A stretch of 64,000 nt of DNA from Pomacea canaliculata (Eukaryota): contig NC_037595.1 in NCBI RefSeq assembly GCF_003073045.1, positions 8,636,345 through 8,700,344 on the forward strand, read 5' to 3'. The translations under genes and the position numbers were made by a program. The notes beneath the pieces were generated by a model. The model was given only the letters and a program-made list of their open reading frames with translations. It was not told the origin of the DNA and did not search any database. The number at the start of each line of letters is the position of its first letter. The first letter of the stretch is position 1. Below are positions 38,001 to 57,800 of this stretch, piece by piece.

Positions 38001-40613
38001 TAAGTCTTCTTTTTTTTCTTCTTCTTCTTATTATTTATAAAGTGCCTAACCTAAGGACTGAGGTTTACATATAGAGCCAATCACATAGGAACAATCAAAG
38101 AACACATTAAAAAGACAGGAAAGAGTTAGCAAAAATATCAGTGAAAGAACTGCATTTTAAGTGATATTTATAAAGTGAGATAAGAATGTCTAATATCATG
38201 CAACCATTGAAAAGGAAAAGAATTCCAAAGCTGAGTCCTGTAAACAGAGATTGAGCAATAGCATTGTGAATGGCATTTGAATTGCTTATGTTAAAGTAGC
38301 CTTGTTTACAAGGAGGGGAGAGAGAGCAAAAGAAATGTGGATGGACCATCAAATATTGGGCACATGGTGGCAGATTTTTTTAAGGGGCTGAAGATCATGT
38401 CAGGACAACCAGCAAGGAATAAATTATAGTTACTGAATCTGGAAGTGATGCAGGAAGTAACATAATATAGTTTTTTTCGTATCTATATTATGTAAAACAG
38501 AGCCAATGCTTTTCAACTCATAACAGTAGACAAGGCAAACTTTTGTAATGTGTAGTTTTATTGGTAAGTTAAATTCTATAATGAAACAAGTTCTTTGTAC
38601 AATTAAAAAGTTAAATTTTTCTGCAGCCTACACATAATGGCAGAGGAGTAAGAAAAGAAGTCAGAAGTGTATCAGGGAATGGCTGTTGGTTTGCACATAC
38701 TGAATTGAGAGATGTAATAAGGAAACAAGTAATTGATGAATTTCAGCATGTTTCGCAATTAAACTAGACAGTGGTGAACAAAACTAGGCGGAAAACTGAT
38801 CTCTGCAGAATACAATATCAGAATCTTCAGCTGGGACATAAGTATTGCTGGTGAATGATTTGTTATCTGCTTGCAGCAGGGATCACATTTGTTACTGATC
38901 ATTACTGTTGTCTTCACAGCCTCATTCCAGCACAACTGTCTAAGTAAACTGAAACCTTACTACCTGAGTATAGTTTTTTCTGTCGGCCTGTTTACCTTTC
39001 TCTCTATGTTATGCATTAAAAAGGAGAAATTTGGCAAATACTCATTCTCAGGCCTTACTGTTAGGAATTCTCTGTCCCTGTTTCTGCGTTTGAAGCTTTC
39101 AAATGCAGCCTCAAAATCCATCATCTTAAGAAGTATCTTTCATACTTAAAGTGTAATAACTCTTCTCATTCCTTAGTTCTTCATCTTCATTCATACACTT
39201 TAGTTTGTCTTTCCCATGGCATCATCTGTTTTCTGATACTTGTGTTGCTTCACTGTGGTTGACTCTCAGATCATTTGTGGTCTTTTGTGTACAATGCATT
39301 GAACTACCCCAAGTAAGAAAAATGCACTCTACTAATTATTATTATTCTAAAAAGTAGAGGAGATGGAAAATATTAAAGTCATTAACTGATGTGTCCTAAT
39401 ATCTAATGAACACCAGAAGTATGCACAAGCCTTTTTTCTTATTATTCCATTACCCACTCACTGAAGCATAGGGCTGCAACTTCATCACACCAGCGGATCC
39501 GGTTCTGGGTGTCTGTTTCCAGTTGGATACATGTCATGCCAGCTGCCTCCGTCTTGCTGTGGGCTGATCTCCTCCATATCTGTCTGGGTCTCCCAACCCT
39601 TAGCTGCCCTTGTGGGTTCCAGCCCAGAGCTTGTCTTGTTAAATTGTCAGCCAGCTTTCACAGGGTGTGACCGATCCAGCCCCACTTTTGCTTCTTGATG
39701 TCTTGGCTGGCAGGTTTTTGGTTAGTTCTCTGCCACAGATCTGTGTTGGAGATCTTCTGGGTGCATCTGATTTTGAGGATGTGGCGCAGACATCTGTAGA
39801 CAAATGTCTGAATCTTGTTGGGGATGGTATTTGTCATACACCATATCTCAGATCCATATAGAAGGACTGACTTTACATTTGTGGTGCGTAGAGATAGTGC
39901 CTTGGAGTTCCAGATAGGTCTCAGGATGTGGAATGCAAGCCAAAAAGATTGAAAAGATGAAAAGTCATTAACTGATGTATCCTTGTATCTATTGAACAAC
40001 AGAAGTATACACCAGCCTTTCCTTGTCCTGTATTTAGAAAATTGTTATCCAGTATTCCAGATACACCCATGATGATAAGAATATGGCTATTTTTAGAGAA
40101 ATTATTATCACCAAGTAACCTATTTCTTTTTCCTAGGATGAAGACATGAGCAAGAAAGGTCCCTCCATTATTGAACTTGTCAGCAAGGAGAGCATTGACA
40201 TTCTGGACTACATGAGCTGGCAGGAAGAGATGATGGACATAAAAGAAGACCAGCTTGTGAGTTTTTAAAGATTATTTTATGTTTGACGTGATAACTCTCA
40301 ATGCATATTTTTCCCCCTTCTTTGCATCAGGTAGGCATGTCATAATTCTTTTCATAGTTTCATATTTTCATTTTCAACCATTGTTTTATTCTTTTTGTTC
40401 CTCCCACCTTACAGTCCTGACTTTTATTATCCCCTAATTTTGCCTAAAAACATGTGAGCAATTAAAGGCAGTTTTCAAAACAAACTGTCACTTTACTTTT
40501 GTGAAAATTCAGTTCATCATGACATGATGTTTTAACTTTGTCTGTTTCTTTTTTAGGTGGAAGAAGAAGATGTGATCACATCAGCGAAATATGAAAGAAG
40601 AGCAGAAGAATGA
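20077..40613 (+). CDS. PARP4: Vault poly(ADP-ribose) polymerase (PARP4) homolog with BRCT, PARP catalytic, VIT and vWA domains. Multi-exon gene span; at least 25 coding exons detected.
   Basis: Plus-strand exons in order. BRCT: [43 protein letters not shown] (20077-20205) and [15 protein letters not shown]...[25 protein letters not shown] (21004-21202); ...[15 protein letters not shown] (21493-21641). Helical regulatory-like exons follow at 22.3-24.07 kb, e.g. [34 protein letters not shown] catalytic: ...[19 protein letters not shown] (27508-27645), [33 protein letters not shown] (28182-28280), [18 protein letters not shown]...[13 protein letters not shown] (29.31-29.50 kb), [20 protein letters not shown] (29.81-29.97 kb). 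VIT: [55 protein letters not shown] (30.79-31.02 kb) and [26 protein letters not shown] (31.42-31.59 kb); [14 protein letters not shown] (32.69-32.83 kb). vWA: [14 protein letters not shown]...FNVVVFGT (33.25-33.44 kb), [10 protein letters not shown]...[13 protein letters not shown]...[10 protein letters not shown] (35.55-35.74 kb), [25 protein letters not shown]...VIYGFVPNC (36.09-36.38 kb). Then [25 protein letters not shown] (37.06-37.15 kb), [25 protein letters not shown] (37.89-37.99 kb) and [31 protein letters not shown] (40.14-40.26 kb). Last exon 40557-40613 reads [18 protein letters not shown] then TGA. Colinear similarity to human PARP4 (recalled from memory) and the BRCT plus PARP plus VIT plus vWA architecture are PARP4-specific. 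Exon borders show GT and AG. Confidence 0.85.
20315..20482. mobile_element. 168 bp element resembling a MITE (miniature inverted-repeat transposable element) with 13 bp perfect terminal inverted repeats and an ATATA flank, in PARP4 intron 1.
   Basis: The left end CAGGGCTTCTGCT (20315-20327) and right end AGCAGAAGCCCTG (20470-20482) are perfect reverse complements. Both are flanked by ATATA (20310-20314 and 20483-20487). The interior has four copies of a G-rich palindromic submotif, (A/T)GGGGTCCC or GGGACCCC. It has no coding capacity. Confidence 0.5.
24287..24648 (-). repeat. 3' LTR of the retroelement (362 bp).
   Basis: Identical to 26745-27106. Contains three copies of a 27 bp tandem repeat, cttttcgcgctcttttg(c/t)atcagc(g/a)ta, at 24503-24584. 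Contains the identical spurious 60-codon ORF listed in the ORF track. Confidence 0.85.
24989..26695 (-). CDS. Gag-like polyprotein of 568 aa: a Ty3/gypsy-type capsid (Retrotrans_gag-like), one CCHC zinc knuckle, a cold-shock domain (Lin28/Y-box-like) and 8-aa tandem repeats (VTVPVVPE-like). No protease, RT or integrase.
   Basis: ORF 24989..26788 (minus). The probable start is MAEDGDSP (ATG complement 26693-26695), 50 nt downstream of the 5' LTR. The gag signature is ...[25 protein letters not shown]. The zinc knuckle [14 protein letters not shown] (C-x2-C-x4-H-x4-C) is at about 25958-25999. The cold-shock domain [48 protein letters not shown] is at about 25643-25786; compare Lin28 GICKWFNVRMGFGFL...DVFVHQSKLHMEGFRSLKEGEAVEFTF. 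Seven or eight 24 bp repeats encoding (P/S)(E/D)(V/M)TVPVV are at 25025-25210. The stop is at 24989-24991. Confidence 0.75.
   Translation of the reverse strand: MAEDGDSPVEALRTYQLFRLQKFAGGPTPNVEEFQREVQWALTMNPMPQNAACVYVLNALEGPARRRVLMQPHDAIDTPKKILDVLVEAYGERKDVVDVIASFYNRRQRHEESVDEYATTLRNLQAKANSLQSGAMLNIHLAAQFVKGLKNCHVRRETSRHLADNESSSFADLLKTAKRVEREEEGNEDREDEIDRLTARVRQLEMETASQPHRIQQNNIPSTRTARPAALVCYWCEREGHREADCQHKQRYLRRQQARQRDGQRFSPITNSFYRRGGGRRGVQAAAINNISDDSDGGGGRRRGFCRWFNVAKGWGFITPDNGDQDVFVHHSVIHKAGFRSLGKGEVVEFEPRLSYKGVQATFVCGIGGVKCRGSDRRPMSKKEFQNKPVVQLQQQQPQRRQSQAELQRDRFHGRSGRSTCNISSRPVNDSAVYTVRPLVDGPALTLNSDNRAAKSSLQLEDIQLPETQNCQDYDSDEETPFWYGTLPPHQARTRLIPKVTVPVVPEVTVPVVPEVTVCAVPDMTVPKLTVPVVSEMTVSVVPDMTVSVIPEGTVPAVFQPRFAVRQA
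26745..27106 (-). repeat. 5' LTR of the retroelement (362 bp), with U3 tandem repeats, TATA box and ATTAAA.
   Basis: See the 3' LTR. The offset between copies is a constant 2458 bp at start, middle and end, indicating no indels. Identical LTRs imply a very recent insertion. Confidence 0.85.
27508..28280 (+). CDS. PARP4: Two PARP4 catalytic-core exons (27508-27645 and 28182-28280) carrying the nicotinamide-pocket H-S and Y residues.
   Basis: Exon 27508-27645 reads [45 protein letters not shown] with R split across the junction (ttttcag acceptor, AG|gtttgt donor). Exon 28182-28280 reads (R)[33 protein letters not shown] followed by gtaggt. Compare human PARP4 [45 protein letters not shown]. 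The conserved Glu in DDEYVVY (29.8 kb) suggests a catalytically competent ADP-ribosyltransferase. Confidence 0.75.
33690..34840 (+). mobile_element. Degraded 3' portion of an RTE/CR1-like non-LTR retrotransposon (reverse transcriptase C-terminal half), frameshifted, in a PARP4 intron.
   Basis: Plus-strand frames give the RT motifs [96 protein letters not shown] (the FADD box), [67 protein letters not shown] and [12 protein letters not shown]. These span at least three frames with stops, so the copy is a pseudogene. Confidence 0.7.
39430..40000 (-). mobile_element. Second, inverted fragment of the same RTE/CR1-like family (RT C-terminus), in a downstream PARP4 intron.
   Basis: Minus-strand ORF 39658..39999 reads [67 protein letters not shown]. 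Further minus-strand sequence reads [30 protein letters not shown]. The DNA is nearly identical, as a reverse complement, to 34430-34620. Confidence 0.7.
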
Positions 40614-42399
40614 AACGCAAGAAGATATCTGTGGATTCACCTCAACTTCTCCATCAAAGTTACAAGAGTAAAGGTCACAGGAGTTTGTCAGAATCCTCCT
40701 AAAACTGACAGCAATGTCGTTATTTTGTTTTAAATACTACACTTTTCTTTATGTAATGGGATGATCTTTATCTAAACAAGTTAAATATTGTTACCTATTT
40801 GTTGTACAAAATTTCTTGGACTTAATAAGTAGTAATCACAGAATAGATCATATGTTAGTTTTGATAGCTGCTTATTCGTTAAGGAGTAAACTAGATAATG
40901 ATAACTGAATGCAGTGATAAGTCATTTCATTCTTATTTGTGCTGAGTTCCTTAGTGTACCACAGTTATGAGTCTGTGTGTGCTCTTTCTAAGAAATAATT
41001 AACTGCTGTTGTAAATAATAATGGCATGTTTATCTACATAATTGTATTATTGTAGTAGTAGCACCTTTGTCAAAGTGAAAAATATTCTAAAGTTGTTATT
41101 TGTTAATGTGAGCTTGCAAAAGAGAAAGGTAAGCAGTATCATAGCTTGTCTTTTTTTGCTTCCAGTTTGGTACTAATGGAGAGGGAATAAAGAACAATGA
41201 GAAGACATAATTTAAAATGAAGAAATAGAGGATTCTCTATAAAAGTGGTCAAAATTTCTTCCTGAATTTAGACACAAAAATAGATGTTTTAATTGCTGGT
41301 ATCAGTAGAGTGATGTGATCTTAAAAGCTAAAAGTAAGGTGTGAAGTAATTTACATGAATTGTGAATGTTTCAGAGATGGTTTGCTCGGATGAAGATGCA
41401 GAAAGGTCTTTTGATGAATTGTTAAGTTATGAATGTGCAGGTTTGTTGGATGCATAGGACATAAATCTTAATACCAAAATTGTTGCAAGATAACCTTTGA
41501 AATACACTCGCACAAAACAACTTGCACCACAAAAGAAAGTTGACAAGGGATGACAAGCATACAGCAGACATTAAGGGATCAGTTGTACACTACAACATAA
41601 TACAACTTAGCTCACTTTAAGTATCAGAATGTATGCTTAATTTACACTTTGGTCAGATGATAGAAGAAATGGCCAAAGAGGCTTTGAATGAAGATTGGGT
41701 GCTTGTTCAGATGTATCACACATTGAAGCATTCATCCGAAGATAACTTTTTTTTAAAAAGCAAGAATACCTTCTTAAGATCAACACCTTGCCTCTTCTCA
41801 GAAAAATAATTTACTTACTAACCCTAGCAGGAGTATATTCCAAAATTAATTTCCAACTCTAGAAAGTCTGCTCAAGCACATTATTCAGTAGTAGCAGGAA
41901 TTCAGGTTTTTTCCCTCTGGAGGAACTTAAAGCTGGACATTGTACAGGTCATTGCAATATTCGGTTCATTGATTGACAATGCTTTTTGTGAGGAGGTGGC
42001 TATTGCTGTCTTTGCTGACCGAAGTTTATATTAATCTGTCTTGGTGAACTGTTCAGTACCTGTAGGCCGTTTTGTTGTCACCTCATCACATCTTTTTAAT
42101 CTATTTTATGGCATTGCTCCTCTGTCTAGTTCTCTCTAGATGCCTTCATTCCCTTTCTGATGTCACTGTTAATGCTTTGTACTGGGAAGCTGCCTCAGGC
42201 CCACTTTTCCTTTCTTTCTTCCTTCAAGGTCTTGCTATGGTCATTTGTTCATCCCTTGACAGTTAACGAATGCTTATGCTGGTCCACCGGTGCTGGTCAT
42301 CTGGGAGAACGGGTGGATAGATGCAGTTGCTGGCAAGTCTTGCCACTGAGGTCAGTCGTGAGCGGTGATGAGCAGGTCTGCATAGATTGACCACTCCTT

Positions 42400-43500: not shown

Positions 43501-45150
43501 AAAGGTATAGGAAGTAGTGTTTGTGTCCATTCTTTAGGCCAGTATGTGAGTTCTCAGATTCTTTAGCTTAGAGCAGTAAAGACATTTTGTGTTTCTTCCT
43601 ACTCTGGAACGCCATGTGACTTCCTTCCCTTTAGCCTGCGTACAGCTCACAGGTCCTCTTCCCGTCAGACTGGTAGGTCTGCAGGCTCTCTGGTTGTTTG
43701 GAATGATGATGGCGGCTGTCCTCAGCTGGAACTTGTACAGGTCCAAGTACGTCGGCTTAGCAGTTGCTTTCTTTGTGGTTGCCTTGACTAAAGACTTGTG
43801 GTGACCTGTCTTGGTGAGGTCTTCAGTAGCGGGTAGGCCTTCCTGCTGTTACTTTGCGCCATTCCCTCCCTCAGTGGTTCGGTATTGGTCCTCAATACAG
43901 ATCTCCATGGGTATCTTCATCACTATCCTGGCCTCGCAGTTCGCTTCTTCTGCTTTTCTTTTTTTTTTTTAAAAATGCCCGTCTTTGGCTACAAAGATCT
44001 AGGATATCATTCGTGACCCAGGATTGTTTCTTTTTCCTCTGCCTCCCTAAAACCTTTTAGGATGTTAAAAGTAGTACCATTAGGATGCTTTCTGCGAGGG
44101 TGTCTACATTGCAGTCTACTTGTTCCACAACGTTCAGGTCTTGCAGCTTCTCCAAGTCAAAGAGAATTATGGGGTAGGTGACATGGTGTTTCATCTTTAG
44201 CTTTAACGTAGGCTGGTTAACACGAGCATGTCGCTGCCTATATTGCCATTTGGATATGATCTTGTCTGAGCCTTGTCTGGTTTCCTTCCCACTGTACCAG
44301 AACGTGACCTTCGTCTTTTGCTTTCGCTACAGGTCACGGCCGTCTGACCTTTGGCAGCCTTTCATTGTCTCGGCTGTATCGGTCTAGCTCGTGAGTTCTT
44401 TCATCTTGCTTCACGGATGTGCGGACGTCTACGCGCACCAAAGTCCCCTCCCAGCTATATCTGGTGGTTTTGCTCCAGTAGCACACTTTTCGCTGGCCTC
44501 TTCCTGGAGTTCTCTGGGGTGGTGCGTGGTCGTTGTTGATCCAGGCCTCGACCGATTCATTGTTAAATTTTGTTTGCTTTCAATGACCCTGGACCTTTCT
44601 CACATCTAATACACCTAGTGTCGTCCAATGCCTTTTAAACAATGGGTCACTATGGTCGATTTGTAGGTGTGAATAGAATATTCAGCTAAACAGCAGGGAG
44701 AAAATGCTATAAAACTGGAAGAAAATCTGTATACTATGACCAAATAAAGACCGGCTGTCCCTCATGATTTACCCTCTCTCTATCAGTTTATGCGTGAGTG
44801 GGTAGGACGGTGGGATTGTTTGCGCGCGCGCGTCTGTCTCGGGAAAGGTAATGAGGTGAATGGTTTGTGCAGTGAGTTTGTGGAGGTATAGGTTATTAGA
44901 ATGGAAACATGAGCAAGGAAACTATAGACAGTAACAGCTGAAATTCTGATCATTACTGACAACAATAATTGTTCACAGTGATGACCATAGATTAAAGCTT
45001 TTGTACATATCACCATTCTCCATTTTCTTTTAGTCTATAATTTCTGCAGGCTACTTAGTCTTTCAGTGTGTTTTCCATGTGCTCTATGTTAGCCATAACG
45101 ATTAGCGTGTGTTAGCATGTGGCTACAGACCTCGCTAATTCACAAGATTA

Positions 45151-45801
45151 ATGAATGTTACAGATGTTGAGTGGGGTGGCGAAGATGTCAACATTGACAG
45201 ATTCTCGAAGCACTCGTCCGAGTCTTTTTTAGTGCCATGTTTGTCTGGTATGTCAGACTCCGTCTCACAAAGTAATAGTATCAGCAGAAGAAGACTCGCA
45301 GGAGGAAGACCAGGTGGTAGAGGCAGAAAAGCATACCTGGACAGTGAAGATTCTGCAGACCGATTCATGGTAACCCGGAGTTGTGAGTCAGCAGACATGG
45401 ATTCGTTCTTTCGTCGGAGTAGTGCGAAAAGAACTGATGTTCAGGACATGGCGTCAGCACCATACTTTAAAGCATCTGCTGGAGAATCTGAAGAATCTGA
45501 AGCATTAGAGCTTCTTAACAGAGGTAGAGGCCATCCCGTATACTCTCCAAGGTCTCCGACGTATCAAAAGCAGAGTTTTGGGGAAATTTTACAATCAACT
45601 TCATCCGCAGGAGGAATTGTACAAGCTCAGCCAGCAGCCCAAGGACAGAATCTGATGTTTGGAGCCGCACCGTTTTCTGTAAAACCATGTTCCTTTCAAC
45701 AACCCACGGGTAGATCTGAAGAAGAACCAGAGCTGGAAGCAGCACAGAGTGTATTTTTAGGCCCTATACGTTCACGGTCAGACCTGCAGTGGCTTCAGTA
45801 G
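45151..45801 (+). CDS. Intronless ORF part 1 (216 codons): a Ser/Arg-rich and acidic N-terminal region ending in an FG-like motif. It is joined, apparently by a frameshift, to the repeat ORF that follows.
   Basis: An ATG at 45151 follows a CpG-rich stretch (gtttgcgcgcgcgcgtctgtctcggg at about 44.82 kb). The product contains SPRSPTYQKQSFGEI and MFGAAPFSVKPCSFQQ. The frame-1 stop TAG is at 45799-45801, while frame 3 is open from 45720, giving an 80 nt overlap. Confidence 0.4.
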   Translation: MNVTDVEWGGEDVNIDRFSKHSSESFLVPCLSGMSDSVSQSNSISRRRLAGGRPGGRGRKAYLDSEDSADRFMVTRSCESADMDSFFRRSSAKRTDVQDMASAPYFKASAGESEESEALELLNRGRGHPVYSPRSPTYQKQSFGEILQSTSSAGGIVQAQPAAQGQNLMFGAAPFSVKPCSFQQPTGRSEEEPELEAAQSVFLGPIRSRSDLQWLQ

Positions 45802-46500
45802 GTCTCTTTGGTTGCAAGGCTTCAATGCCAGCTTCAATTGAAATGTTAGCTTCAGCGAGATCCCCTTTAGTTGGATTTGGAGGCATGGATTCTTCAAAGG
45901 CAACAGGTTTTGGGACAACATTTGGATTTGGAGGGGACGCACATTCAGGAGTCTTTGGAGCAGCACCTTTCTCACAGACTGCACCGTTAGCAGCACCTTT
46001 AGTACAGGCTATACCGCCAGCAGCATTTTTCTCACAGACTACACCGTCAGCAGCATTTTTCTCACAGACTGCACCGCCAGCAGCACCTTTCCCACAGATT
46101 TCAACGCAAGCAGCATTTTTCTCACAGACTACACCGTTAGCAGCACCTTTAGTACAGGCTACATCGCCAGCAGAATTTTTCTCACAGACTACACCGTCAG
46201 CAGCACCTTTACTACAGGCTACACCGTCAGCAGCACCTTTCCCACAGATTTCAACGCAAGCAGCATTTTTCTCACAGACTGCACCGCCAGCAGCACCTTT
46301 CGCACAGATTAAACCGTCAGCAGCATTTTTATCACGGGCTACAGCGCCAGCAGCACCTTTCTCACAGGCTACACCGCCAGCAGCATTTTTCTCACAGACT
46401 GCACCGTCATCAACACCTTTCCCACAGACTACAGTACAACGCCACTCACATTCAAATGCCAGTGCCGAAGTGCCGGTGTGTGTCCCAATGGGTAAGCAAG
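45720..46500 (+). CDS. ORF part 2 (about 260 codons), encoding FGFGG/VFGAAPF motifs and then about 13 tandem copies of an 11-aa unit (FFSQT[AT]P[PS]AAP / FPQISTQAA / LVQATSPAE).
   Basis: The translation reads GFGGMDSSKATGFGTTFGFGGDAHSGVFGAAPFSQTAPLAAPLVQAIPPAAFFSQTTPSAAFFSQTAPPAAPFPQISTQAAFFSQTTPLAAP.... The underlying DNA is a 33 bp-period tandem repeat (cagcagca(t/c)ttt(t/c)ctcacagactacaccg(t/c)). The frame-3 upstream stop is a TGA at 45717-45719. The track's 'M' at 45789 is a GTG, so the true start is unclear. Confidence 0.4.
45960..46440 (+). repeat. 33 bp-period tandem repeat array of about 14 imperfect copies, forming the coding repeats of the ORF above.
   Basis: Units such as ctcacagactacaccgtcagcagcatttttc and ctcacagactgcaccgccagcagcacctttc recur head-to-tail. 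Confidence 0.7.
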
Positions 46501-48360
46501 CAGTCTTATTGTTTTTTCAGTTGTTTTATTTGTTTGTTTATTTATTTGTTTACCGTGTTTGGTATTAAGAAGCAAAGAAAACTAATGGAAAAATATTCCA
46601 TATCATTTGAATATAATATGAATTAGCAGAAGACCTCCAGTAAACGTTAAAATTTCTTCTTATTTGACACAAGAAAAATTTCATTTGTTGATATCTATAA
46701 AATTAAAATGATCTAACAAGCTAATAGTGGATGTAAATAATTTATATGAATACTGGACGTTTCAGAAAAGTCGGTTGGCTTAGAGCCAACTCCTTTCTTT
46801 CGCAAGAGATGGCGACTTTCCAGGTTTGTTTGATGCATCTGAATTGTTGAGTAATAACCTGTGAAATACACTTGCAGAAACTCGCAGCTCAAAGCAAGTT
46901 GTCAGGGTCTCCGAAGCTTTTTCTTTTTTTTTTTGTATTCACAGGTTCTTTTGATTGCATGCTGCTTTTTTTGTTTTGTTTTGATCGACAGATTCTGATT
47001 GCCCTATTTTATTTGTTGTGGTTACCATTCTTCATGGTGTCCAACATTTTTAAGATCTTGTTCTCGATTCTGATTTTTTTTTATTATAACACCGACATTA
47101 ACTTTCAGTTCTGCTTCATCCATGGTTCTTCTTGTGTCCGACATGCCATTATGGGACCATTTTCACTTGGACTTAAAGCGATCCGGGACGACTAAACTGT
47201 CTCCTGTAACTTAGTCTGCATCGATCTGCATTCAGAGCAGACGTCTGTAGTCGGCAGTTTGTCTTTGATGACCTAGCACCCCTCTACAACCTGGAAGTAG
47301 GCGCTGTCCTTGACAGACATGCACCGCTCTCCACCCGCTGTGTCGCTGATTGCCAACCTACCCCATGGCTCATCCCTGAGGTTTGAAAACAATTGCAAAG
47401 AGAGCGCGGCATCGGTTGAAAGCCAGTGGAGAAAGGCGAGCCTCACGGCTCACACATATTTTTTCCTGTGTCACAGGGAGATGACAAAGCGTTGGTGTAG
47501 TTCTTCAAACATTCGATTTAAAAAAAAAGGCAAGCCAGACTAATATTCATCAAGTAGGGATTGATTTCGGATTGTGCGCCAGATGTTAAGCCAAAACTAA
47601 GGTGCCTTCTACCATTCTTCTTGAACAGCCGCCTGATATGTTCTTTAAATACTTTCTGAAAAAGTCGGGGATGGACCCACAGTCTCACAATTCTAGTTTT
47701 GGTGTTTCCTCCTGAGTTTGTCCCTGTCGCCGAGTCCCAGGTCAGGAGATCGTCAGAAATTCTCCAAAGAAATCTTGTTTCTCGACTCGATTACGTCCCG
47801 TCTCCTACACGAGTGCCTTGACTTGACCACTCGAGTTATCACTCAGCTGGAACTATTCTGCTGACTCCTAATCTTCATCATTTTCATTCATACATTTAAT
47901 TTGTGTTTGCCGTAGTGTTTTCCCTTTACAAACGCTGTGTTTCTGTCGGTTTGTTTGTAGTCTTTCGCGTGCAGCGCATGGACCTCGCATCCACACGGGA
48001 GAGTGCGCTTCACAAATTGAACTGTTTTATTATTCGTAGTAGTAATATGCCCAATTTGCACTTTATCTAGACGAGAGCAGTAAGAACAAGTAAGACTTAA
48101 CCTGCAAAATACTACATTTTGAAGCGCAATAACAATTGTATTATACTGCTTACAAAGAGTTAAGGGTCAGAGAATATCTCGCAAAAAATCATCCGCAGGT
48201 GTGACTTTTCATGTTGTACTTTGATTATTTGTTCGATAGTAAAGTGAGAAAAGTAATTTCTTTTCTAAATCATTTCTGTTCCAAGATACAGGCAGTCAAA
48301 AATACTCCCGACCCCCGAATCAGAAAGTCACAGGACCTGTCAGAGCACTTCGGCATAGCA

Positions 48361-48381
48361 AAAAAAAAAAAAAAAAAAAAA
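48361..48381. repeat. A21 homopolymer followed by AT-rich (ATAA)n-like sequence; a possible retroposon tail.
   Basis: aaaaaaaaaaaaaaaaaaaaa ataatgataataaataaataaattaataataaaag. Confidence 0.8.
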
Positions 48382-48595
48382 TAATGATAATAAATAAATA
48401 AATTAATAATAAAAGAAATAAAGGTGACTGCCATTTACTGACATGCATTCAGCACTCTGAAGTGTCATAATTGCTGATCAGACGCATAGTTCTGTAGTTC
48501 TGGCGCTACTGTTTTCTATTTTTGGAAGGGGTATGTATGACTATTTACTGGATTTATTCATTGAGCCATTCGGCACAGAGCATTGAGAGCATTTG

Positions 48596-49072
48596 TTATT
48601 TCATCCCTTCCTTGTCTTTTTTCATATGATTTTCCTGCCTTTCGATGGCATGCCACTCTTTTGAGCTCTTCCCGTTGGATTGGTAAGTCTGCAAGGTCGC
48701 TAGTTTCAATCTGGTTGTTTTTACCGATGTTACGTTTGTCTTCTGCTGGACATTGTTAACTTGCAAAGGTCTTTGCAATATTCAGTCTGTCAGCTTAGTA
48801 CAGCAATTATCTCCGTGAGAAGGCGGCCATTGCTGTCTTCGATGATTAAGGTCTTGTGTTGACGTCTTGATGAGTATCTTTAGTAATTGGTAAGTGTTTT
48901 TGCTGTCACCCCGTGCTATACCCTCCTCTGTGGTAATGATTTGGCCCTCGATGAAGTTATCCTTTACTGCTTTCATCTCTTTCCTGATGACCCAGTTCAT
49001 TTTTCTGTACGCGGAAGCTACTTTGGGTCGCTTTTTTGTGCACTGAAAGGTTTGGTTCACCAGTACAGGCAT
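48596..49072 (-). mobile_element. Possible retroelement-derived ORF fragment (similar to the region upstream of the RT in non-LTR elements). Weak call.
   Basis: Minus-strand ORFs of 96 and 60 aa (…QCTKKRPKVASAYRKMNWVIRKEMKAVKDNFIEGQIITTEEGIARGDSKNTYQLLKIL…) loosely resemble the segment preceding RT in RTE/L1-like ORF2. An A21 tract lies nearby at 48361-48381. Confidence 0.2.
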
Positions 49073-49363
49073 TGCTTTATTTTCCGTGATTTTCGTGCGT
49101 ATTTAAAGCATTAGGGACGCAGTCAACATGTATTAAAACAAGTACAGATCATTAAAGTACTGTGTATAGTCACACTTTCCAGTTTCAGTTCATTTCACAA
49201 TGTTTAGCTATCTATGGATAGTATACATTCTTAGGACTAACACCTGCATGTATTCTGAAGTAACCATTCATTACTAAAAGCTTTTATCTCCACCTCTAGA
49301 AAGTGCTTCAGCACAAAGTTCAGTATCATCAAACATTCAGTGTTTTTTTTTTATCTGATTCAG

Positions 49364-50187
49364 AAGACGTATACGACGATCTAACATCGACCGCAGCCAA
49401 TCAGCCACCACCATCACCACTACCACACAAAGCGAAAAGGTCAAATGCTGACTCACTGCCGAAACGACGACCTTGTTCTAATCAACTCAGGATATCACAG
49501 GAGTTCTCAAGTGAGCAGCTAGACAGACAAGAACCGCCGGCACCACCACAACAACTTAAATCAGGAGACGAGATAAAAGGATTAGCAGAATCACGTTTAG
49601 CAATAAAATTTGCCGCTGGAACGTTGTTACAACAACGAAGATCATTGATACAACGATCATGCAAATCCCAGGTGAGCCCGGATACAACCTACTATCATTC
49701 TGTTAGGCCTCATGCATCCTGCTCGAGAGCAGAGTCAGACCAAGAGAGATCTGAATCCCCGAAGGCTAGAGGCACAAGGTGGGATGTATTTAATGACGAA
49801 GCAATGTTAGAAGAGCAAGGAGCACAGCCAAGTGTCAAACGTCCCCTATCTAAAATGATGGAAAAGTCTCTTCGCCAAACGCAAGACATTGCCGCTGGTG
49901 GTCCGGAGAAATTGGTGAGTGAGGAAGAAGCGGTGTTAGATCTGAGAGAAAAGAAGACAAAGAAGAAGGGTTCCCTTGAACAGGGTATAATCAGTCGCTT
50001 TGAGAGCGAGATCGACTTCCTTCAGCGACAGCTGGAGTTTCAGGTCGGGGGCAAGTCCGGGCTGATGGACTACACTGCCGACGCCAAAGGGCAGGTGCCT
50101 GCCATCCGAGAGGCGGAGAGTAACCGGACCATCGACCAATGGCTGCAGCCGGACGTCTTGAAAACGCTGCTCATGTTGCCAGACAAG
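49364..50187 (+). CDS. Large exon of a gene of unknown function, encoding a Ser/Pro/Gln/Glu-rich, probably disordered region. It starts at an acceptor, so the 5' exon or exons were not located.
   Basis: Acceptor tttttttttatctgattcag|AAGACG at 49364. The ORF track frame (49303..50226) is open through to the donor GACAAG|gtaact at 50187. The content reads ...PPPSPLPHKAKRSNADSLPKRRP...EEQGAQPSVKRPLSKMMEKSLRQTQD...ISRFESEIDFLQRQLEFQVGG...QWLQPDVLKTLLMLPDK. The track's 'M' at 49303 is a GTG. Confidence 0.5.
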
Positions 50188-50603
50188 GTAACTTCTGCCT
50201 TGATGATGACGAGGAGAATGCCTTAATGATGATAACCGACTATCTTTTCTTGATGGTGACGCTGACAATGACAAGGACATTGACCATACCTTGATGAAGA
50301 ATAAAGATTTTTGTAATATTCTTTGGTTGGCCTATCATCAAAGATAAAAAAATGTCTATACATTCTGTTGGATGGCGTGTTATAATGATGCATTTTGCTA
50401 ATGACTGTCTTACCTTATGTGTATGTTATGTGTATCTGTATTGTTAAATACATTACTTTATGTATGTTTTGTGTATCTGTATATTATAGGATAAAAATAA
50501 AGTTTGAAACATTCGGTAGGTGATACTGTTCAAATGCTGTTTAGGTAGGTTGGTGTAAATGAGACCAGATCAAACGAAATAATGAGATTTCTTATTTGTA
50601 CAG

Positions 50604-50703
50604 GAAGGTGAGTGGTCCCTCGACCTACAACTGGGACTCGTCCTCCATGCCGACGTCGAGGCGTGTCGACAGCTTCTTTTCTCTAGTGGCCTTCGCTCCT
50701 TTG
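50604..50703 (+). CDS. Exon 2 of the same gene (100 nt; moves the reading phase from 0 to 1).
   Basis: Acceptor ttatttgtacag|GAAGGT and donor CCTTTG|gtgagt. In continuity with exon 1 (phase 0) it reads EGEWSLDLQLGLVLHADVEACRQLLFSSGLRSF plus 1 nt. This phase is exactly what is needed to enter the long ORF frame of the next exon. Confidence 0.5.
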
Positions 50704-50844
50704 GTGAGTAAACACTACTTACTCATTATGTGGGTATGTTGTGAGTCCCGTTCGCGAAGTCCAGGGACGGGTGGAGGAAGAGGGAGAATTGGAGAAATAA
50801 AGGTCGGGTCTGTAGGAAAGACAACGTTTTGTCACTGTTCGCTG

Positions 50845-50930
50845 TAACATAGGAAGGCCTATGTGGTTAGCGCTCTTAACTGTGGAGCAGAAGGTCGCCA
50901 GTTCAAGACCCACCTGGGTCTGTAGATGGT
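50845..50930 (+). repeat. tRNA-like (possible SINE) segment of uncertain identity, with A- and B-box-like motifs.
   Basis: GGCCTATGTGGTTAGCGCTCTTAACTGTGGAGCAGAAGGTCGCCAGTTCAAGACCCACCTGGGTC. TGGTTAGCGC resembles a pol III A box and GTTCAAGACC a B box, but it does not fold cleanly as a canonical tRNA. A related GGTTAGCGCC...GGCTTCACC segment occurs at 52030-52110. Confidence 0.3.
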
Positions 50931-51423
50931 TTAAAAAATGTCCCACCCTTCCAGCAGCTTTCTTAAAGAAATCAGATTTATCAGGCAAGACATAGGTAGC
51001 GGAAAGAGAGAGCTGGCTCTGTCTTGTACATGCCACGCTCCAGACACAATGGTTCACTTACCTTCACAGTCTCCACGACGACAAGGCTACGCGGATCTGT
51101 ATCTTAAGCAGGGAAGGCTAATAGCAATGGTGGTATACACACGTATATATACGTGTTTACCAGCTTAGTGTGGCTTTGACGCTTTATGGATGATACAGCT
51201 GTGCTCATTTGTTCCTGCTTGCCATTATTACAAAACCTCACGAGGAGGTTCGCATAAAAAGTAAAAACCTCTACCATAGACATTGGAAGTGAGAAGGGGA
51301 ACAGGCGCTGTATGTAACTGATCTGTGATTGCCCATACACGCACAAGCGCGCGCATACACACAGGTACACGCATACACAAGCACACACGTGTGTGTATCA
51401 ATGCATTTTCCCACTTTTGACAG

Positions 51424-51758
51424 GCGAGTCTGCTGCCAGCAGCCTGCAGAAAGTGGTGGCCACTCTACTGGTGCTGATCTCGCTCCTGCAAGTTCTGCTG
51501 CCCGAGCTGTCCCCGCCCGACTTGGTGCAGCTGCTCAAAGCCTCCATCGCCAGGTTCGCCGACAGCGAGCTGCAGTGCAAGGTCAGGTTGGCCTTAGAGG
51601 GCAGAAAACTCGAGCTACCCAACGACCTTATGAACCGCCTCGAAAAGGCGCTGTGCTACTGCAAGGTCATGGACGAACGCCATCCGTTGTCCTGTTCCTC
51701 GCTGGAGCTGGCATCCGATTGGCCAACTCTCTGCGTCAACCTACTCGGCTTAGCCTGA
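51424..51758 (+). CDS. Terminal exon of the same gene: a conserved-looking alpha-helical C-terminal domain with a stop at 51756-51758. Product unidentified.
   Basis: Acceptor ccacttttgacag|GCGAGT. Using the 1 nt carried from exon 2, it reads (G)ESAASSLQKVVATLLVLISLLQVLLPELSPPDLVQLLKASIARFADSELQCKVRLALEGRKLELPNDLMNRLEKALCYCKVMDERHPLSCSSLELASDWPTLCVNLLGLA*. Codon usage here is G/C-ending-rich compared with the flanks. Confidence 0.55.
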
Positions 51759-52025
51759 GGTATTGCACAGCTTCCTCGACAAAGAACGGTTTTTGGACTT
51801 GAGTAGTCTATACAGAACCCGCTTTAAAGTTTCCCGCTTGTTTTGATGACAAGACTTGTAGTTTGTATCCTGCTTTCCGGTGTGTAAAGGTTTTGTAAGA
51901 TTGCTTTTGACAACGCTTTTAATTTTGAATCTTGTAACATGTACCTTGTATGATATTCAGATATATCTGTGATGGGTGTTAAAAAAAGTCTTTTATGTGG
52001 TTTTTTGAATTGCTGTTTCCTTACA

Positions 52026-52110
52026 AGTCGGGCGGTCCGGTGGTCCAACGGTTAGCGCCAATACAGCGAAGGTTGACTGTCCTGGCTTCACCTCTCGTCT
52101 TGGACACGCT
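52026..52110 (+). repeat. Second tRNA-like (possible SINE) segment related to 50845-50930.
   Basis: tcgggcggtccggtggtccaacGGTTAGCGCCaatacagcgaaggttgactgtcctggcttcacctctcg shares the GGTTAGCGC core and a similar downstream layout. Confidence 0.25.
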
Positions 52111-53550
52111 TCTCTTTCTCTTGTGGCATGTGGCATCTGTTTACAGGGCTGCTTGCCTCACTGTGATATAGCCTTAGCTGCCGGCGGTGTAAAACACCAA
52201 TTCATCCACCCCACTTCTTACAAGTTTGTAACAATGAAAAGGAAAGTAGGGAGAATTATTGCATTAAATGTTTTATCACATTGCATGCTTACTAACGATG
52301 CTGCAAATGTAAAAAACAATACAGCCACATATTCATTTCAAGATATTTTAATAGTCGAGAATTTTTTTCCAGACATATTCACTAAATGTAACGCTTTTTT
52401 TCTACAGCCCACGAAACTACTGTGCCATACATTTTTGTTATCTCTTACATCTTTTCCTTTGTTCCCGATTCTTTTTTCTGCGATCACTTCGGAGAGTTTT
52501 GATGCTGTTTCAGCAAGCTTCGTGTACAGTGCACAAATGCGGCAAACATTGTACTTTTCGGGAGGCTGATCCTGCAATGACCGTTTGTTTTCACAAGAGT
52601 TGATGGATGGAACGATGTTTCTGTCATTGAAAGTTGAGCCGCATCACAGGAAATAATGATTTGAGCTCCCATACAAGGGTCATATAACTGTCGACTGCTC
52701 TTTGAAGCACAGCTTTTCATCGAAGGATCCATCCAGTGGAATCCATGCCTACCGTATCTGTGCTGACGACTTTCACCTTCTTGGAACAAGTGGTTACACT
52801 ACAGGGGCTCGCAGTAATTTTTATTTATTTTTTTTTCTTTGAGACCAACGTCCTTGATGATTGTTATATTTTTTGTGTGGCATTTTGAACCTTCCTTTGA
52901 TGGTAGGGAAAGAGCAATGTTGATCAACTTTATATTTTGCCGTGCATTGTATATGAAGGTGCACTTGGTGCCTGCCCTAAAAAGGTGTACTCGCCCGCCT
53001 GTCTGTATGTACAGCGCTCTGATTCCTGCTGATTCTGGAGAAAATCGCTATGTAAATGTGATGATTATTATTTTGAATTTATTTCAACCATCGGTGTATT
53101 TTTATAGAATAAATTAGGCTGTTCGAATTTTAAAATTATGCTCGCTTGATTAGATACAGTATGAAATTTGAGCTACTGCATTTTTCTAGTGTTTCGACAT
53201 CTGACTTCTTGAAACATTACTATTTTTGCATTTAATATCAGGTGTGCATTAATTTACTTGAATCAAAACTATGCAAGTTGTTTAGTTTTTAATTTGAAGA
53301 GCAGATCATGGCAACGACAGTGATGATGATAATAATGATGTAGTCTTGTAACTACAAACATCATCATTAGAAGAGGGAGAAATTTAACTTGCGCATGTCG
53401 CCGAGGGTGAAGTGACCTTTTCCCCTCTCTCCATGCCTTCTATCCTTAGCCGTGCGAGACCAAACAAATATGAACGAACGTTTGGTCAAGTTTGGCAAAG
53501 TAGTTCCATGACGGTTTTATAAAAAGTTGGACAAGTATTCATCCGTATTT

Positions 53551-54810: not shown

Positions 54811-57800
54811 CTAATACTGAATCTCAGCTTTTTCAAGGGCTTCCTCAGCAGTTGCAATGCGAATGTTAAGTTCAGGCATGTAATGATCCCGAATGGTTGT
54901 GTCATTCACCCAGGAGTCACAGCGCATGCCATAGTCGTAGAGGCACTCCCGGTAGTGGTGCAGGAGCGCCCTCTCGGGGCTAAAGGTGCGGGACTCCCAG
55001 GGCTCCAGCAGCTGCTTGCTGACGTGGTGTATTCCCACTTCGAACACACGGCGAGGCATCACCATGACCTTAGTCCTAACCTGGAAAATAGACACAAAAC
55101 AACCTGCTAACACGTCTTGCAGCAAACTGGATTTTTAATACACGGACTAATATGTCTACCAGTGTTCATATTGTCATTCCATTATGCCAGGCTACATTAG
55201 TGAGAATCTGCATGCATTGTCCATTAAACTAACACTACGTAAACTCTTTTGAGTGGAAACAAGAGATGCAAAAGCCTCATGTATCCGATGTGAGACGGAT
55301 AAAAGAAGAAAAAAAAATAATAATCATGATAATAATAAAGTGAACGATTTAAGGAAAATATTACACGTACTTTGCTAATAACCTCTGTCCTTGCTGTCGA
55401 GAAAACGGTCATGACGTTGTCGGGGAGCTGGGTGGCCACCACAGGGTCGAAAAATGCCGACGCAAATCTGTAGCCACACGTGTCGTTTGGCAGTTCTGGC
55501 GGAATGATGTCGGAGTAAGTTCTGAAGCATCCAACATACAAGTCTGACTACATGTGGAAGGACCGAAGAACGACTTTACCTGGAGTCATTGTCGACTATC
55601 CGCTATCCAGCTAGATGCACCAAGCTTAGTCATTAACGTGGGATCGTACTGGTACGATTGTCAAACTGACAAATACTTACAGAAGAGAATGTTGTCACAG
55701 TAAGTAAAATGTGTTCCTTATTACACAAAAACATTGTTAACAATTACGTCAACCTGAAAAGCAGAAAAGAGTATGTTTACAGTATGTTAAATGTGTTATT
55801 TATTGCACAAACGCATATTGTTAATTATGTGAAAGTGAGATGCTCAACAAACACAGAGACTAAAGCAGAAACATGTAATGTCACATACACAAACACATGA
55901 GCAGAAACATGTAATGTCCACAAACATAAACACAATCCCGATATACACACACGCAACCGTGCACTATCGCGCCAACCTGCATGCACTCTAAAGTCGACCT
56001 CGGAATGACCCTGACCTTGCATCCTTGGAGTGAGGCACGATGAACTCATCGATGTCGTGGAAAGCAGTGTAGACGGACTGCGCCATGGTGCGGTACAGAC
56101 AGTCGTTGTTGACCACCAGTTGACCATGGTACCAGATGTTGCTGGACATCTCCTCCGGCAGTCGCCAAGGAATAACCGTAACCCAGCGCTGACGGCGAGA
56201 GGAACACAACGATGCACAATGTTTACTAGAGCTTCATGATGTCTTGCAGTGCTTCGAATCCATTCACATGTCTATATGATGTTTGCATCTAACAAATGGT
56301 TTTCATTTTGTATCTAAGTTTGCTGTTGTTTGCAGAGTTTGTTATTTTGTCATTATCTTACAAAGAATATACTGGCTTTGAACTGGGTTAATAAAGATTC
56401 GAATGCTGTATCTTTTGGTCCGCTTGCTGCAAAAACAATGTTCTTTGTATATTTTACAGAACTTTGTATTTGCTTATACAGCTTGGTTTTTGTTCCGTTC
56501 AAGTCTGAAGGCGCATTTTCTGAGTTAGTGGTTAGTGCTGGATTACTGACGTCGCGGGAGTTACATTAATTATTAGATTATTGTTATTATCTTTAGCTCT
56601 TCACTTTAGTACTAGTCGTAGGGGACACAGCTTGGGTGAACTGATGCCAGCCGGGACGGCCATGCGCGCGCGAGAGAGAAAGTCCCCCAGTGGACAGCAG
56701 GTCCATCCCTTCACGTGTTACGCAGACTTCATGGGTACGTTGTCATTGGCCGAATGAAGATAACATGAACTTACAGGTACACTCGTACACTGTTGGTTAT
56801 TTAACTATTATTGTTATTTTGTCGTGGGGAAAATTTTATCTTTAGTTTGCCCGATAAAGAAATTGGGTCGTTGTTCAGATCTGACAGCCAACAGAGGCTA
56901 CACAAATCTTACACGTGAGTTTGGTCGGCCAGCTAGACTGACCTGGTCTGGACGGTGTACTTAAAGTGGTAAAGAAATAGGAAACATGTTGTGGGTGCAA
57001 GACCTACAAAGATTTTGAAGTATTTTATTTTAAGCTTAAGAGTTTTCAATCTATAACGCACTGCAAAAGTAAGCTTTTTGTAAATGGATTTTATCACTCA
57101 GATATTATAATTGTCGGGATTGATAGCTTTTTTTCAACTTCAGTAACTTTCCTTGCTTGAACGGTGTAAAATACAAATAAACAAACAATAAGTAACTTCC
57201 CTGTTCACAATCAACCAATCAATTATAGGAGAGAGACTTACTTTGCCCTCGTAATGCCTGAGCACCCGTTGCACTATCTCTGAGGTAGAGAAGTCGTAGA
57301 AGAAGATCTGCTGAACACCCAGTAGCCGTGTGAGTTCCAGAAACTCCACAAGTCGCTTGGGGCTCACGGAGCCAAAGAGTGGGGAGACACAGATGCTAAA
57401 GTTGTAGGCGAACTTGTCTGTGCTGACCTGGTCGGACACCAACGGGTACAAGCCATGATGAGTAACCTTTTGACGGAGAGGTTATCGACTACGCCCCCCC
57501 CCCTTTTTACTGCCGCAGAAAAACGCATTAGATTGGATCGCTAAATAAAAGAATCAATCGTTTCAAGATGATAAGAGAAAGCTCTTCTTCTTCACAGGAC
57601 ACTTGAATGTTTGTTTTTCTGTTTATTCATGTCTCCTCCACACACACACACTCGCAGAACAAGGTGTAAATCCCAGAAAACACTTTGTAAACGTTTATAA
57701 AAGGTTTAAGTGCTATCAGTGGTTCTAAGCAAACCCAAAGTGAGAGACATAGCTACGTCACAGACCTTTTGACCGGAAGTGACTGGTGGCGACACACGCT

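Follow-up and report, generated by a model that had tools for sequence, protein, structure and literature searches.

Three exons of a Pomacea canaliculata locus that encode a PARP4-type MVP-interaction domain are probably the 3' end of PARP4

In the 64,000-nucleotide stretch of the Pomacea canaliculata genome analysed here (the window; all coordinates refer to it), three forward-strand exons join into one open frame, which raises the question of whether they form an independent gene of unknown function, as a first-pass annotation had proposed, or part of a known one. The exons, splice sites and phases of that annotation were borne out: together they make a single frame of 418 aa, the two peptides quoted from it lie inside this frame, and both junctions (50187/50604 and 50703/51424) are present in the GenBank model PVD28319.1.

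49364-50187 (+): 824 nt, exon 29 of our provisional PARP4 model; disordered S/P/Q/E-rich linker, conserved RFESEIDFLQR motif and start of the MINT domain; acceptor ttatctgattcag/AAGACG, donor GACAAG/GTAACT
50604-50703 (+): 100 nt, exon 30; MINT residues EGEWSLDLQLG...GLRSFG, including the family-invariant G-x-x-S-x-G; Potamilus PARP4 2219-2254 maps to 50601-50708 by tblastn; acceptor tgtacag/GAAGGT, donor CCTTTG/GTGAGT
51424-51758 (+): 335 nt, exon 31, terminal coding exon; C-terminal MINT helices ending ...LELASDWPTLCVNLLGLA; acceptor tttgacag/GCGAGT, stop TGA 51756-58
50110-51755 (+), spliced over both introns: codes for the MINT / MVP-interaction domain, homologous to human PARP4 ~1557-1707

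The open frame of the first of these exons (308 codons) exceeds the longest ORF in 200/200 composition-preserving shuffles (maximum 274), and in such shuffles the length of the last-exon ORF alone (146 codons) was not significant. Exon 29 has a phase 1 acceptor and a phase 0 donor; the donor of the 100-nt exon is in phase 1. Both junctions are crossed gap-free in alignments to human PARP4 and to 21 homologues. The phase-1 intron falls within the Gly codon of G-L-x-S-L/F-G, identical in position and phase in Nucella lapillus and Aplysia californica, and Nucella also has a phase-0 intron near the first junction. The product of exon 31 is 100% identical to the sequences P0123, P0180 and P0181.

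The first 245 or so residues of the 418-aa product form a disordered, fast-evolving linker, and the remaining ~170 make up an all-helical domain. Serine, proline, glutamine and glutamate account for 36% of the N-terminal part, in agreement with the earlier description; the phospho-site-like SP/TP motifs also described there come down to three SP sites, and a motif count of this part returned no TP site. No family was detectable for these 245 residues. MINT has been defined as residues 1562-1724 of human PARP4 and binds MVP repeats 3-5 (PMC12280208), and on the evidence of sequence, profile and predicted fold we identify the leucine-rich C-terminal domain as the snail counterpart of this human PARP4 MVP-interaction domain (MINT, PF26156). 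Among PDB sequences, the best phmmer match was human PARP4 residues 1557-1706 of 1724 (E=1.4e-4), and a family profile matched PARP4 1563-1707 only, with an E of 1e-42 that is inflated by the vertebrate PARP4 tails included in its alignment (A1). The AlphaFold2 model of the domain is all-alpha (pLDDT 86), as the first-pass annotation had expected of a helical domain, and its top Foldseek match was 9bw6_B (Human Vault Cage in complex with PARP4; prob 1.00, TM 0.50/0.64), which was the sole credible one, all others having prob <=0.05.

A domain-only HMMER search recovered 40 homologues among 1.84e9 representative proteins, almost all of which match at their C-terminus or close to it. They are single C-terminal domains of PARP4-type proteins, including a full-length Potamilus PARP4 (BRCT/PARP_reg/PARP/VIT/VWA), a lungfish PARP4 and a scallop PARP4-like protein, and relatives of the domain carry the PF26156 label 'PARP4 MVP-ID'. 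MINT-like tails were also seen on P0127, a model whose N-terminus is ubiquitin-like, and on P0138, a model that includes an HSP70 fragment. In a word-index search with all 418 aa, the low-complexity part swamped the index, and two Logan fragments that are nearly identical were the only matches. A Pfam-A scan of the 418-aa product, run with a copy of Pfam that lacks PF26156, found no match. We do not take this null as novelty, because the same copy matched nothing relevant in any of 22 family members (0/22), vertebrate PARP4 tails included. With the C-terminal domain identified as MINT, the claim that the protein belongs to no known family falls.

The first 2 nt of exon 49364-50187 belong to a split codon, and the exon therefore cannot be a first exon. 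Further 5' exons, anticipated by the first-pass annotation, are indeed required, as every workable model has them, and the exons found upstream are those of a PARP4 core.

20077-24069 (+): exons 1-8, BRCT and the helical region before the catalytic domain, Pfam BRCT E=8.6e-9; 20077-20205 (start ATG 20077), 21004-21202, 21493-21641, 22361-22501, 22691-22831, 22988-23116, 23265-23441, 23909-24069
27508-27645, 28182-28280, 29314-29497, 29808-29897 (+): exons 9-12, PARP catalytic domain, Pfam PARP E=1.7e-32
30402-30518, 30791-31015, 31421-31585, 32081-32194, 32696-32833 (+): exons 13-17, VIT and the region after it, VIT E=1.4e-38
33246-33432, 35162-35235, 35549-35739, 36108-36378, 36536-36616, 37065-37145 (+): exons 18-23, vWA and the region after it, VWA_3 E=3e-21
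37914-37991 and 40137-40256 (+): exons 24 and 25, the last with clear PARP4-core homology

All core domain exons are open. Pfam placed BRCT at residues 2-81, PARP at 404-565, VIT at 615-739 and VWA at 876-1031 of the concatenated upstream exons, and exons 9-12 matched the catalytic fragments of human PARP4 with E=4.9e-73. The H-Y-E positions of the PARP signature (H862, Y896 and E988 in PARP1) are present on inspection of the sequence motifs, in LFHSS (His), GIYFA (Tyr) and DDEYVVY (Glu). Residues 202-1408 of Potamilus PARP4 are collinear with 20068-37991 and residues 2219-2349 map to 50601-51752, so that the exon mapping is collinear across 20-52 kb of the window; the upstream exons are also collinear with lungfish PARP4. 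Joined entirely by GT-AG introns, the provisional 31-exon model is a single 2,034-codon ORF from ATG 20077 to TGA 51758, whose product matches human PARP4 with E=5.5e-242, PARP2 with ~1e-23 and PARP1 with ~1e-18. Judged by its predicted domains, the locus has the makeup of PARP4/vPARP (PARP clade 5A; Citarelli et al. 2010, PMC2964712).

The model is provisional between the core and exon 29, where the linker exons and two exons of the GenBank model lie.

40585-40667 (+): exon 26, provisional, weak acceptor
45147-45709 (+): exon 27, provisional; acidic/serine-rich linker with ...DVEWGGEDV...; weak acceptor, alternative 45164 phase 1
45871-46491 (+): exon 28, provisional 5' edge; GFG/FG-like low complexity, then a tandem array with a period of 30 nt (10 aa), F-x-S-Q-T-x-P-x-A-A
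46766-46823 and 47236-47380 (+): alternative exons, used only in PVD28319.1

Three acceptors of the 31-exon model are weak (37914, 40585 and 45147) and were chosen partly for closing the frame. Around 37.9 kb, the reading frame changes between the conserved EWMK and the NIIELS that follows it, so that either a 1-nt indel or an unusual acceptor has to be assumed. A 1-nt homopolymer error was considered at ~37905 (A4); another, at ~45753 (T5), was dropped as needless once the 161-nt intron 45710-45870 had been found. The region 40.3-45.1 kb was searched for linker exons by phase, splice logic and composition, and since no convincing single exon with strong sites was found there, the weak-acceptor solution 40585-40667 was adopted provisionally. 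The strongest acceptor after exon 25, 28 nt upstream of the one used for exon 26 (exon start 40557), is in phase 0, and its frame is closed by a stop at 40611-13; AATAAA occurs at 41186. Exon 27, which begins mid-codon at its acceptor, resembles the Potamilus PARP4 linker at the motif level only.

PVD28319.1 (C0Q70_10906, hypothetical protein, 663 aa, Pomacea canaliculata) is 100% identical to the window and has the UniRef name 'PARP4 MVP-ID C-terminal domain-containing protein'. Its first exon is a version of exon 28 that begins at ATG 45825; the model shares its donor at 46491 with exon 28 and its stop with exon 31, and has no junction to the PARP4 core exons. Compared with the 31-exon model, it has two extra exons, 46766-46823 and 47236-47380; the 5' edge of exon 29 is the acceptor 49501 in PVD28319.1 versus 49364 here, with an identical donor. 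The earlier guess of a 5' exon in the GC-rich 47.2-47.5 kb segment was right insofar as it coincides with exon 47236-47380; a direct junction from 46491 to 49364 is, however, equally valid, as the exon 28 donor G/GTAAGC at 46491 is in phase 1 and matches the phase-1 acceptor at 49364, giving the codon G+AA (Glu). Exon 47236-47380 reads ...LDRHAPLSTRCV..PWLIPE and then, in a shifted frame, ESQWRKASL. In its motifs the segment resembles a decayed LINE ORF2 fragment; Pfam gave no match to it, and its second match within the window was only marginal (~62.9 kb, E=0.09). The 663-aa model probably represents a 3' fragment of PARP4, as do several other gastropod models, one labelled POM121 and one RNA polymerase II subunit.

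The human protein (UniProt Q9UKK3) is represented by the structures 9bw6, 9bw7 and 11jf and the catalytic fragments 8sx1 and 8swy. Human and snail proteins have in common, and in this order, BRCT, a helical region, the PARP catalytic domain, VIT, vWA, a long low-complexity linker and a C-terminal helical MINT, and the snail MINT aligns end to end with human residues 1557-1707, with a predicted fold matching 9bw6_B. They differ in length (1,724 aa in human versus ~2,034 aa in the snail model) and in the linker, which in the snail has the 10-residue FG-like tandem repeat, and MINT identity between them is only ~25%. One of the three named human MVP-contact residues, S1614, is conserved in the snail within the invariant G-x-x-S-x-G, whereas K1618 and R1689 are both Ser; molluscs have a K or R directly before the invariant Ser (GL[KR]S[LF]G). 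Outside Pomacea, the closest relatives of this MINT include those in mollusc PARP4 and PARP4-like models (24-43% identity); the models compared were from Potamilus streckersoni (KAK3593675.1, 2363 aa), Argopecten irradians (XP_069141939.1), Haliotis asinina (XP_067674270.1) and Nucella lapillus (KAL8613685.1). Their linkers, like that of Pomacea, are FG/proline-rich with acidic motifs, and are alignable only as short motifs.

Codon composition and sequence variation both change within exon 29. GC3 is 0.38 at 49366-49965, 0.76 at 49966-50187, 0.58 in the second of the three exons and 0.79 in the third, which confirms the G/C codon bias described for the C-terminal domain; elsewhere in the gene it is roughly 0.25-0.55. 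In comparison with a second sample (L001, 97.9% identical), every difference at 49463-49883 (10/10) is nonsynonymous, and all five exonic differences from 50028 onward, including the 2/2 in exon 29, are synonymous. Homopolymer-length differences from L001 are confined to runs of at least 6 and are uninformative for the A4/T5 indel question. On the other strand, the neighbours are a myosin gene at 0.2-10.3 kb and a GT92 glycosyltransferase gene at 54.8-57.5 kb. Candidate tRNA-derived SINEs at 50.85 and 52.03 kb were rejected: ARAGORN detected no gene resembling a tRNA, and alignment of the two copies was poor.

Could the three exons still constitute an independent gene for a conserved but uncharacterised regulatory or scaffold protein? 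The empty Pfam-A scan and the family-less N-terminal residues are what this reading has in its favour, and we give it next to no credence: the Pfam copy lacks PF26156, all three comparisons (sequence, profile, fold) assign the C-terminal domain to PARP4 MINT, and the first exon starts mid-codon at an acceptor, with no start codon context. A transposon-derived or decaying, pseudogenised sequence in place of a functional coding 3' end would be consistent with the LINE and LTR fragments in the flanking introns, the LINE-like GenBank exon 47236-47380, the frame irregularities suspected at 37.9 kb and 40.56 kb and the exclusively nonsynonymous differences in the linker. It is nonetheless very improbable, since the MINT part is intact, with its family-invariant motifs preserved, folds confidently and differs from the second sample only synonymously, and since all core domain exons are open. 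The many copies that the first-pass annotation had named as evidence for a transposon did not appear either, as self-BLAST of the window showed no second copy of 49.3-51.8 kb.

The remaining alternative is a split gene, in this snail and possibly across the gastropods, in which a PARP4 core without MINT would end near 40.6 kb and the linker and MINT would form a separate transcription unit of ~650-900 residues, starting between 40.7 and 45.9 kb, whose product would be a stand-alone FG-repeat vault-docking protein with no PARP domain. We consider this unlikely, though gastropod annotations (Pomacea, Nucella, Aplysia, Littorina, Babylonia, Haliotis) do keep the linker and MINT apart from the PARP4 core: C0Q70_10906 starts at its own ATG; in Nucella, PF26156 lies in a model of its own (272 aa), on the strand of the BRCT/PARP/VIT/VWA model (1532 aa) and 4 kb away from it; and MINT-only models exist in Aplysia (903 aa, mislabelled POM121), Littorina (780-877 aa, several isoforms), Babylonia and Haliotis. 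The stop and AATAAA that follow acceptor 40557 also fit this reading, as does the sharp difference in GC3 between the last ~180 codons and the rest of the locus; the switch in GC3, however, lies inside exon 29 and not at the putative gene boundary. The 'hypothetical protein' models of Pomacea and Nucella, which have GenBank-type accessions, look like pipeline predictions, gene models are commonly broken by low-complexity linkers, and the 5' edges of MINT-only models correspond to sequence internal to full-length PARP4 elsewhere; the acidic-MGFGLF motif, for example, is N-terminal in the Littorina model but internal in scallop and lungfish PARP4. Bivalve models, in contrast to those of gastropods, are continuous, from vWA to MINT in Argopecten (8 isoforms) or from BRCT to MINT in Potamilus, and in Pomacea the mid-codon start of exon 27 and the single all-GT-AG ORF spanning the locus also argue against a split. 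A gastropod fission of PARP4, or an internal promoter, is likewise doubtful; it would yield a stand-alone FG-linker and MINT protein of the vault lumen and a BRCT-PARP-VIT-vWA enzyme without a vault anchor, with MINT perhaps serving as a portable vault-targeting tag.

The reading we prefer, and consider likely, is that these three exons close the coding sequence of the Pomacea canaliculata PARP4 locus (vPARP, vault poly/mono-ADP-ribosyltransferase), with the MINT tail in one gene with the core. All 31 exons would then form one mRNA. By analogy with the human protein, the snail C-terminal domain may bind the inner wall of the vault shell (MVP repeats 3-5) and would thereby hold the catalytic N-terminal part inside the vault lumen by way of the long, flexible FG/proline-rich linker. 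Conservation of the PARP4-binding residues of MVP is reported to be confined to vertebrates (PMC12280208), and vault docking in the snail is therefore something we infer. Molluscs make MVP (PMC5302490), and vPARP-type proteins track vault-bearing animals (PMC2964712); no MVP gene was found within the window.

The exons are thus an ordinary, already annotated part of a gene, and their MINT domain is already known in GenBank and UniProt; tracing an ORF first described as unknown to an established domain of a known gene is in itself a finding of little weight. The presence of an intact MINT-type domain in molluscs, despite the non-conserved human MVP-contact residues, nevertheless bears on the claim that the PARP4-binding residues of MVP are specific to vertebrates (PMC12280208).

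The three exons that the first-pass annotation proposed were recovered with boundaries exactly as described:

49364-50187, plus strand, opening exon of the proposed gene (acceptor ending ttatctgattcag, donor GTAACT)
50604-50703, plus strand, middle exon (acceptor tgtacag, donor GTGAGT)
51424-51758, plus strand, last exon (acceptor tttgacag, stop codon TGA at 51756-58)

Joined, they give a single open frame of 418 residues containing both of the peptides originally quoted, and the 308-codon open frame over the opening exon is longer than the longest ORF of all 200 composition-preserving shuffles (maximum 274). This exon cannot be a first exon, because its first two bases belong to a split codon. 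The observation stood, and its interpretation only in part: the three exons are not an independent gene of unknown function, being instead the 3' end of PARP4, where they encode its vault-docking domain, and they are already annotated.

Sequence, homologues, profile, family label and predicted fold identify the C-terminal domain, previously placed in no known family, as the PARP4 MINT domain. In human PARP4, MINT comprises residues 1562-1724 and docks the enzyme on major vault protein (MVP) repeats 3-5 inside the vault (PMC12280208). Residues 1557-1706 of the 1724 in human PARP4 gave the one meaningful phmmer match among PDB sequences (E=1.4e-4), in an alignment gapless over both splice junctions. 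Searched exhaustively with HMMER for the last 177 residues, 1.84 billion representative proteins yielded 40 homologues, nearly all matching at or near the C-terminus, among them a Potamilus streckersoni PARP of full length (BRCT, PARP_reg, PARP, VIT, VWA), lungfish PARP4, 'PARP4-like' proteins of Argopecten and Haliotis, and gastropod 'hypothetical' proteins. Relatives are labelled Pfam PF26156, 'PARP4 MVP-ID C-terminal domain', and a 22-sequence family profile matched only PARP4 1563-1707 in the PDB (E=1e-42, inflated by the vertebrate PARP4 tails among its 22 sequences). The AlphaFold2 model (pLDDT 86, ten helices) had 9bw6_B, 'Human Vault Cage in complex with PARP4', as its sole credible Foldseek match in the PDB (prob 1.00, TM 0.50/0.64), every other being at prob <=0.05. 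An initial Pfam scan without match was uninformative, because the library used lacked PF26156. MINT-like C-terminal domains were also found on two models without PARP4 likeness, one of 963 aa (P0127) with an N-terminal ubiquitin-family domain and an acidic DVYDD-MGFGLF motif, the other from Pinctada (P0138, 742 aa) with a fragment of HSP70. Both may result from chimeric gene prediction, or they may point to MINT as a vault tag that is portable between proteins.

The rest of PARP4 is encoded by exons at 20.07-40.26 kb, on the same strand as the MINT exons, between two neighbouring genes:

~200-10300, minus strand, myosin (Myosin_head exons, GESGAGKT), upstream of PARP4
54814-57481, minus strand, glycosyltransferase family 92 (GT92) gene, downstream, converging on the 3' end of PARP4

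Numerous PARP4 fragments, as well as three long PARP4 proteins, align to the window in collinear order; residues 202-1408 of Potamilus PARP4 fall at 20068-37991 and residues 2219-2349 at 50601-50708 plus 51423-51752. Pfam detected BRCT, PARP catalytic, VIT and vWA domains on the concatenated upstream exons. A provisional 31-exon model (ATG 20077 to TGA 51758), built from homology anchors and GT-AG and phase logic, forms one uninterrupted 2,034-codon ORF with canonical introns and matches human PARP4 at E=5.5e-242, versus ~1e-23 for PARP2. An FG-like repeat exon ends at 46491 with a phase 1 donor (G/GTAAGC), the phase of the acceptor at 49364, and would most simply be the immediate upstream partner of exon 29 (49364-50187). 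Within this linker exon, GFG/FGFGG motifs are followed by a tandem array at 45899-46523 of roughly twenty units, whose period is 30 nt (10 residues, F-x-S-Q-T-x-P-x-A-A). Other PARP4 homologues also have FG/proline-rich linkers, which probably explains the annotation of the Aplysia homologue as nucleoporin POM121.

PARP4 introns also hold mobile elements. Between exons 8 and 9, a 2.8-kb element (24287-27107) is bounded by two 363-bp direct repeats, 100% identical (24287-24649, 26745-27107), with a 618-codon open frame on the minus strand between them (24992-26845). The product of this frame is Gag-like at its N-terminus and also contains a CCHC zinc knuckle and a cold-shock domain (Pfam CSD, E=6.8e-20); the whole resembles a young element of LTR type that carries a Gag-CCHC-CSD fusion. 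Non-LTR retrotransposon fragments lie at 33606-34811 (plus strand; reverse-transcriptase match, RVT_1, E=1.7e-13) and, as an inverted copy, at 39434-39941, with 80% identity over 538 bp.

The last exon shows no differences from members of the cluster holding GenBank PVD28319.1 ('hypothetical protein C0Q70_10906', Pomacea canaliculata; UniRef name 'PARP4 MVP-ID C-terminal domain-containing protein'). This 663-aa protein maps to the window at 100% identity in six exons:

45825-46491, exon 1
46766-46823, exon 2
47236-47380, exon 3
49501-50187, exon 4
50604-50703, exon 5
51424-51758, exon 6

Thus a public model already contains both junctions of the three-exon proposal. Its third exon coincides with the 5' exon guessed at 47.2-47.5 kb; we doubt that it is genuine, since its peptide (...LDRHAPLSTRCV..PWLIPE, then ESQWRKASL in a shifted frame) has motifs that may correspond to the endonuclease-reverse-transcriptase interval of LINE ORF2. 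In 49364-49500, the segment skipped by PVD28319.1, there is a polypyrimidine tract (T10), together with a DVYDD motif also seen in the linkers of other mollusc PARP4s. Two strong donor-like sites lie inside exon 29, at 49510 (CAA/GTGAGC) and 49671 (CAG/GTGAGC), and alternative splicing of the linker through them is possible.

We consider it likely that the linker and MINT form one gene with the PARP4 core. A split gene or an internal promoter, setting linker and MINT apart, appears unlikely, although gastropod annotations consistently keep them separate: in Nucella the core model (1532 aa) and the PF26156 model (272 aa) are same-strand neighbours separated by 4 kb, and modelling is likewise split in Aplysia, Littorina, Babylonia, Haliotis and Pomacea. 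Bivalve models, however, are continuous, gastropod models start within motifs that are internal in other species' proteins, exon 27 starts mid-codon, and low-complexity linkers commonly break gene predictions. Separation would also accord with the strongest acceptor after exon 25 (tgtctgtttcttttttag at 40556/40557, phase 0), which reaches a stop codon (40611-13) after 18 residues; AATAAA follows 570 nt downstream, at 41186, and either a short PARP4 isoform lacking MINT or a separate core gene could end here. The continuous model, moreover, depends on weak acceptors at 37914, 40585 and 45147. At 37891-37914, residues conserved in other PARP4s are split over two frames, E-W-M-K after a strong acceptor at 37891 and then NIIELSKEY, with an A4 run and a stop (37905-07) between them; a 1-nt indel, in the assembly or as a polymorphism, would account for this, as would splicing at the weak acceptor 37914.

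Nucella and Aplysia lend the junctions independent support. Both share the phase 1 intron that precedes the last exon and interrupts one Gly codon of a G-L-x-S-L/F-G motif; near the first junction Nucella has an intron too, in phase 0, and its middle exon measures ~97 nt. Over 48816-52840, a Logan contig of a second sample has 97.9% identity; 10 of 10 differences at 49463-49883 are nonsynonymous and 5 of 5 from 50028 onward synonymous, which fits a linker under loose constraint ahead of a constrained domain. The G/C-codon bias claimed for this domain was confirmed and is sharply localised. As far as 49965 GC3 is 0.38, and it is 0.76, 0.58 and 0.79 (the last exon) in successive remaining parts of the three exons, against mostly 0.25-0.55 elsewhere in the gene; the last ~180 codons (coding parts of 49966-51755) reach 0.67-0.85, versus ~0.4 across the other 1,850. 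The switch lies within exon 29, the flanking introns are 33-47% GC, and those between the last exons are not GC-rich. In Nucella and Aplysia MINT exons, GC3 is raised only to ~0.6.

Beyond the architecture and homology established for this locus, docking can be considered by analogy, with caveats. The human PARP4 contact residue S1614 is invariant across the family, snail included, whereas K1618 and R1689 are Ser in the snail; the MVP residues that bind PARP4 are reported to be conserved only in vertebrates (PMC12280208). MVP is abundant in molluscs (PMC5302490), and the distribution of vPARP-type proteins follows that of vaults among animals (PMC2964712). As in the human protein, the helical domain at the C-terminus would bind the MVP shell on its inner surface, and the long flexible linker would tether the enzyme in the vault lumen.
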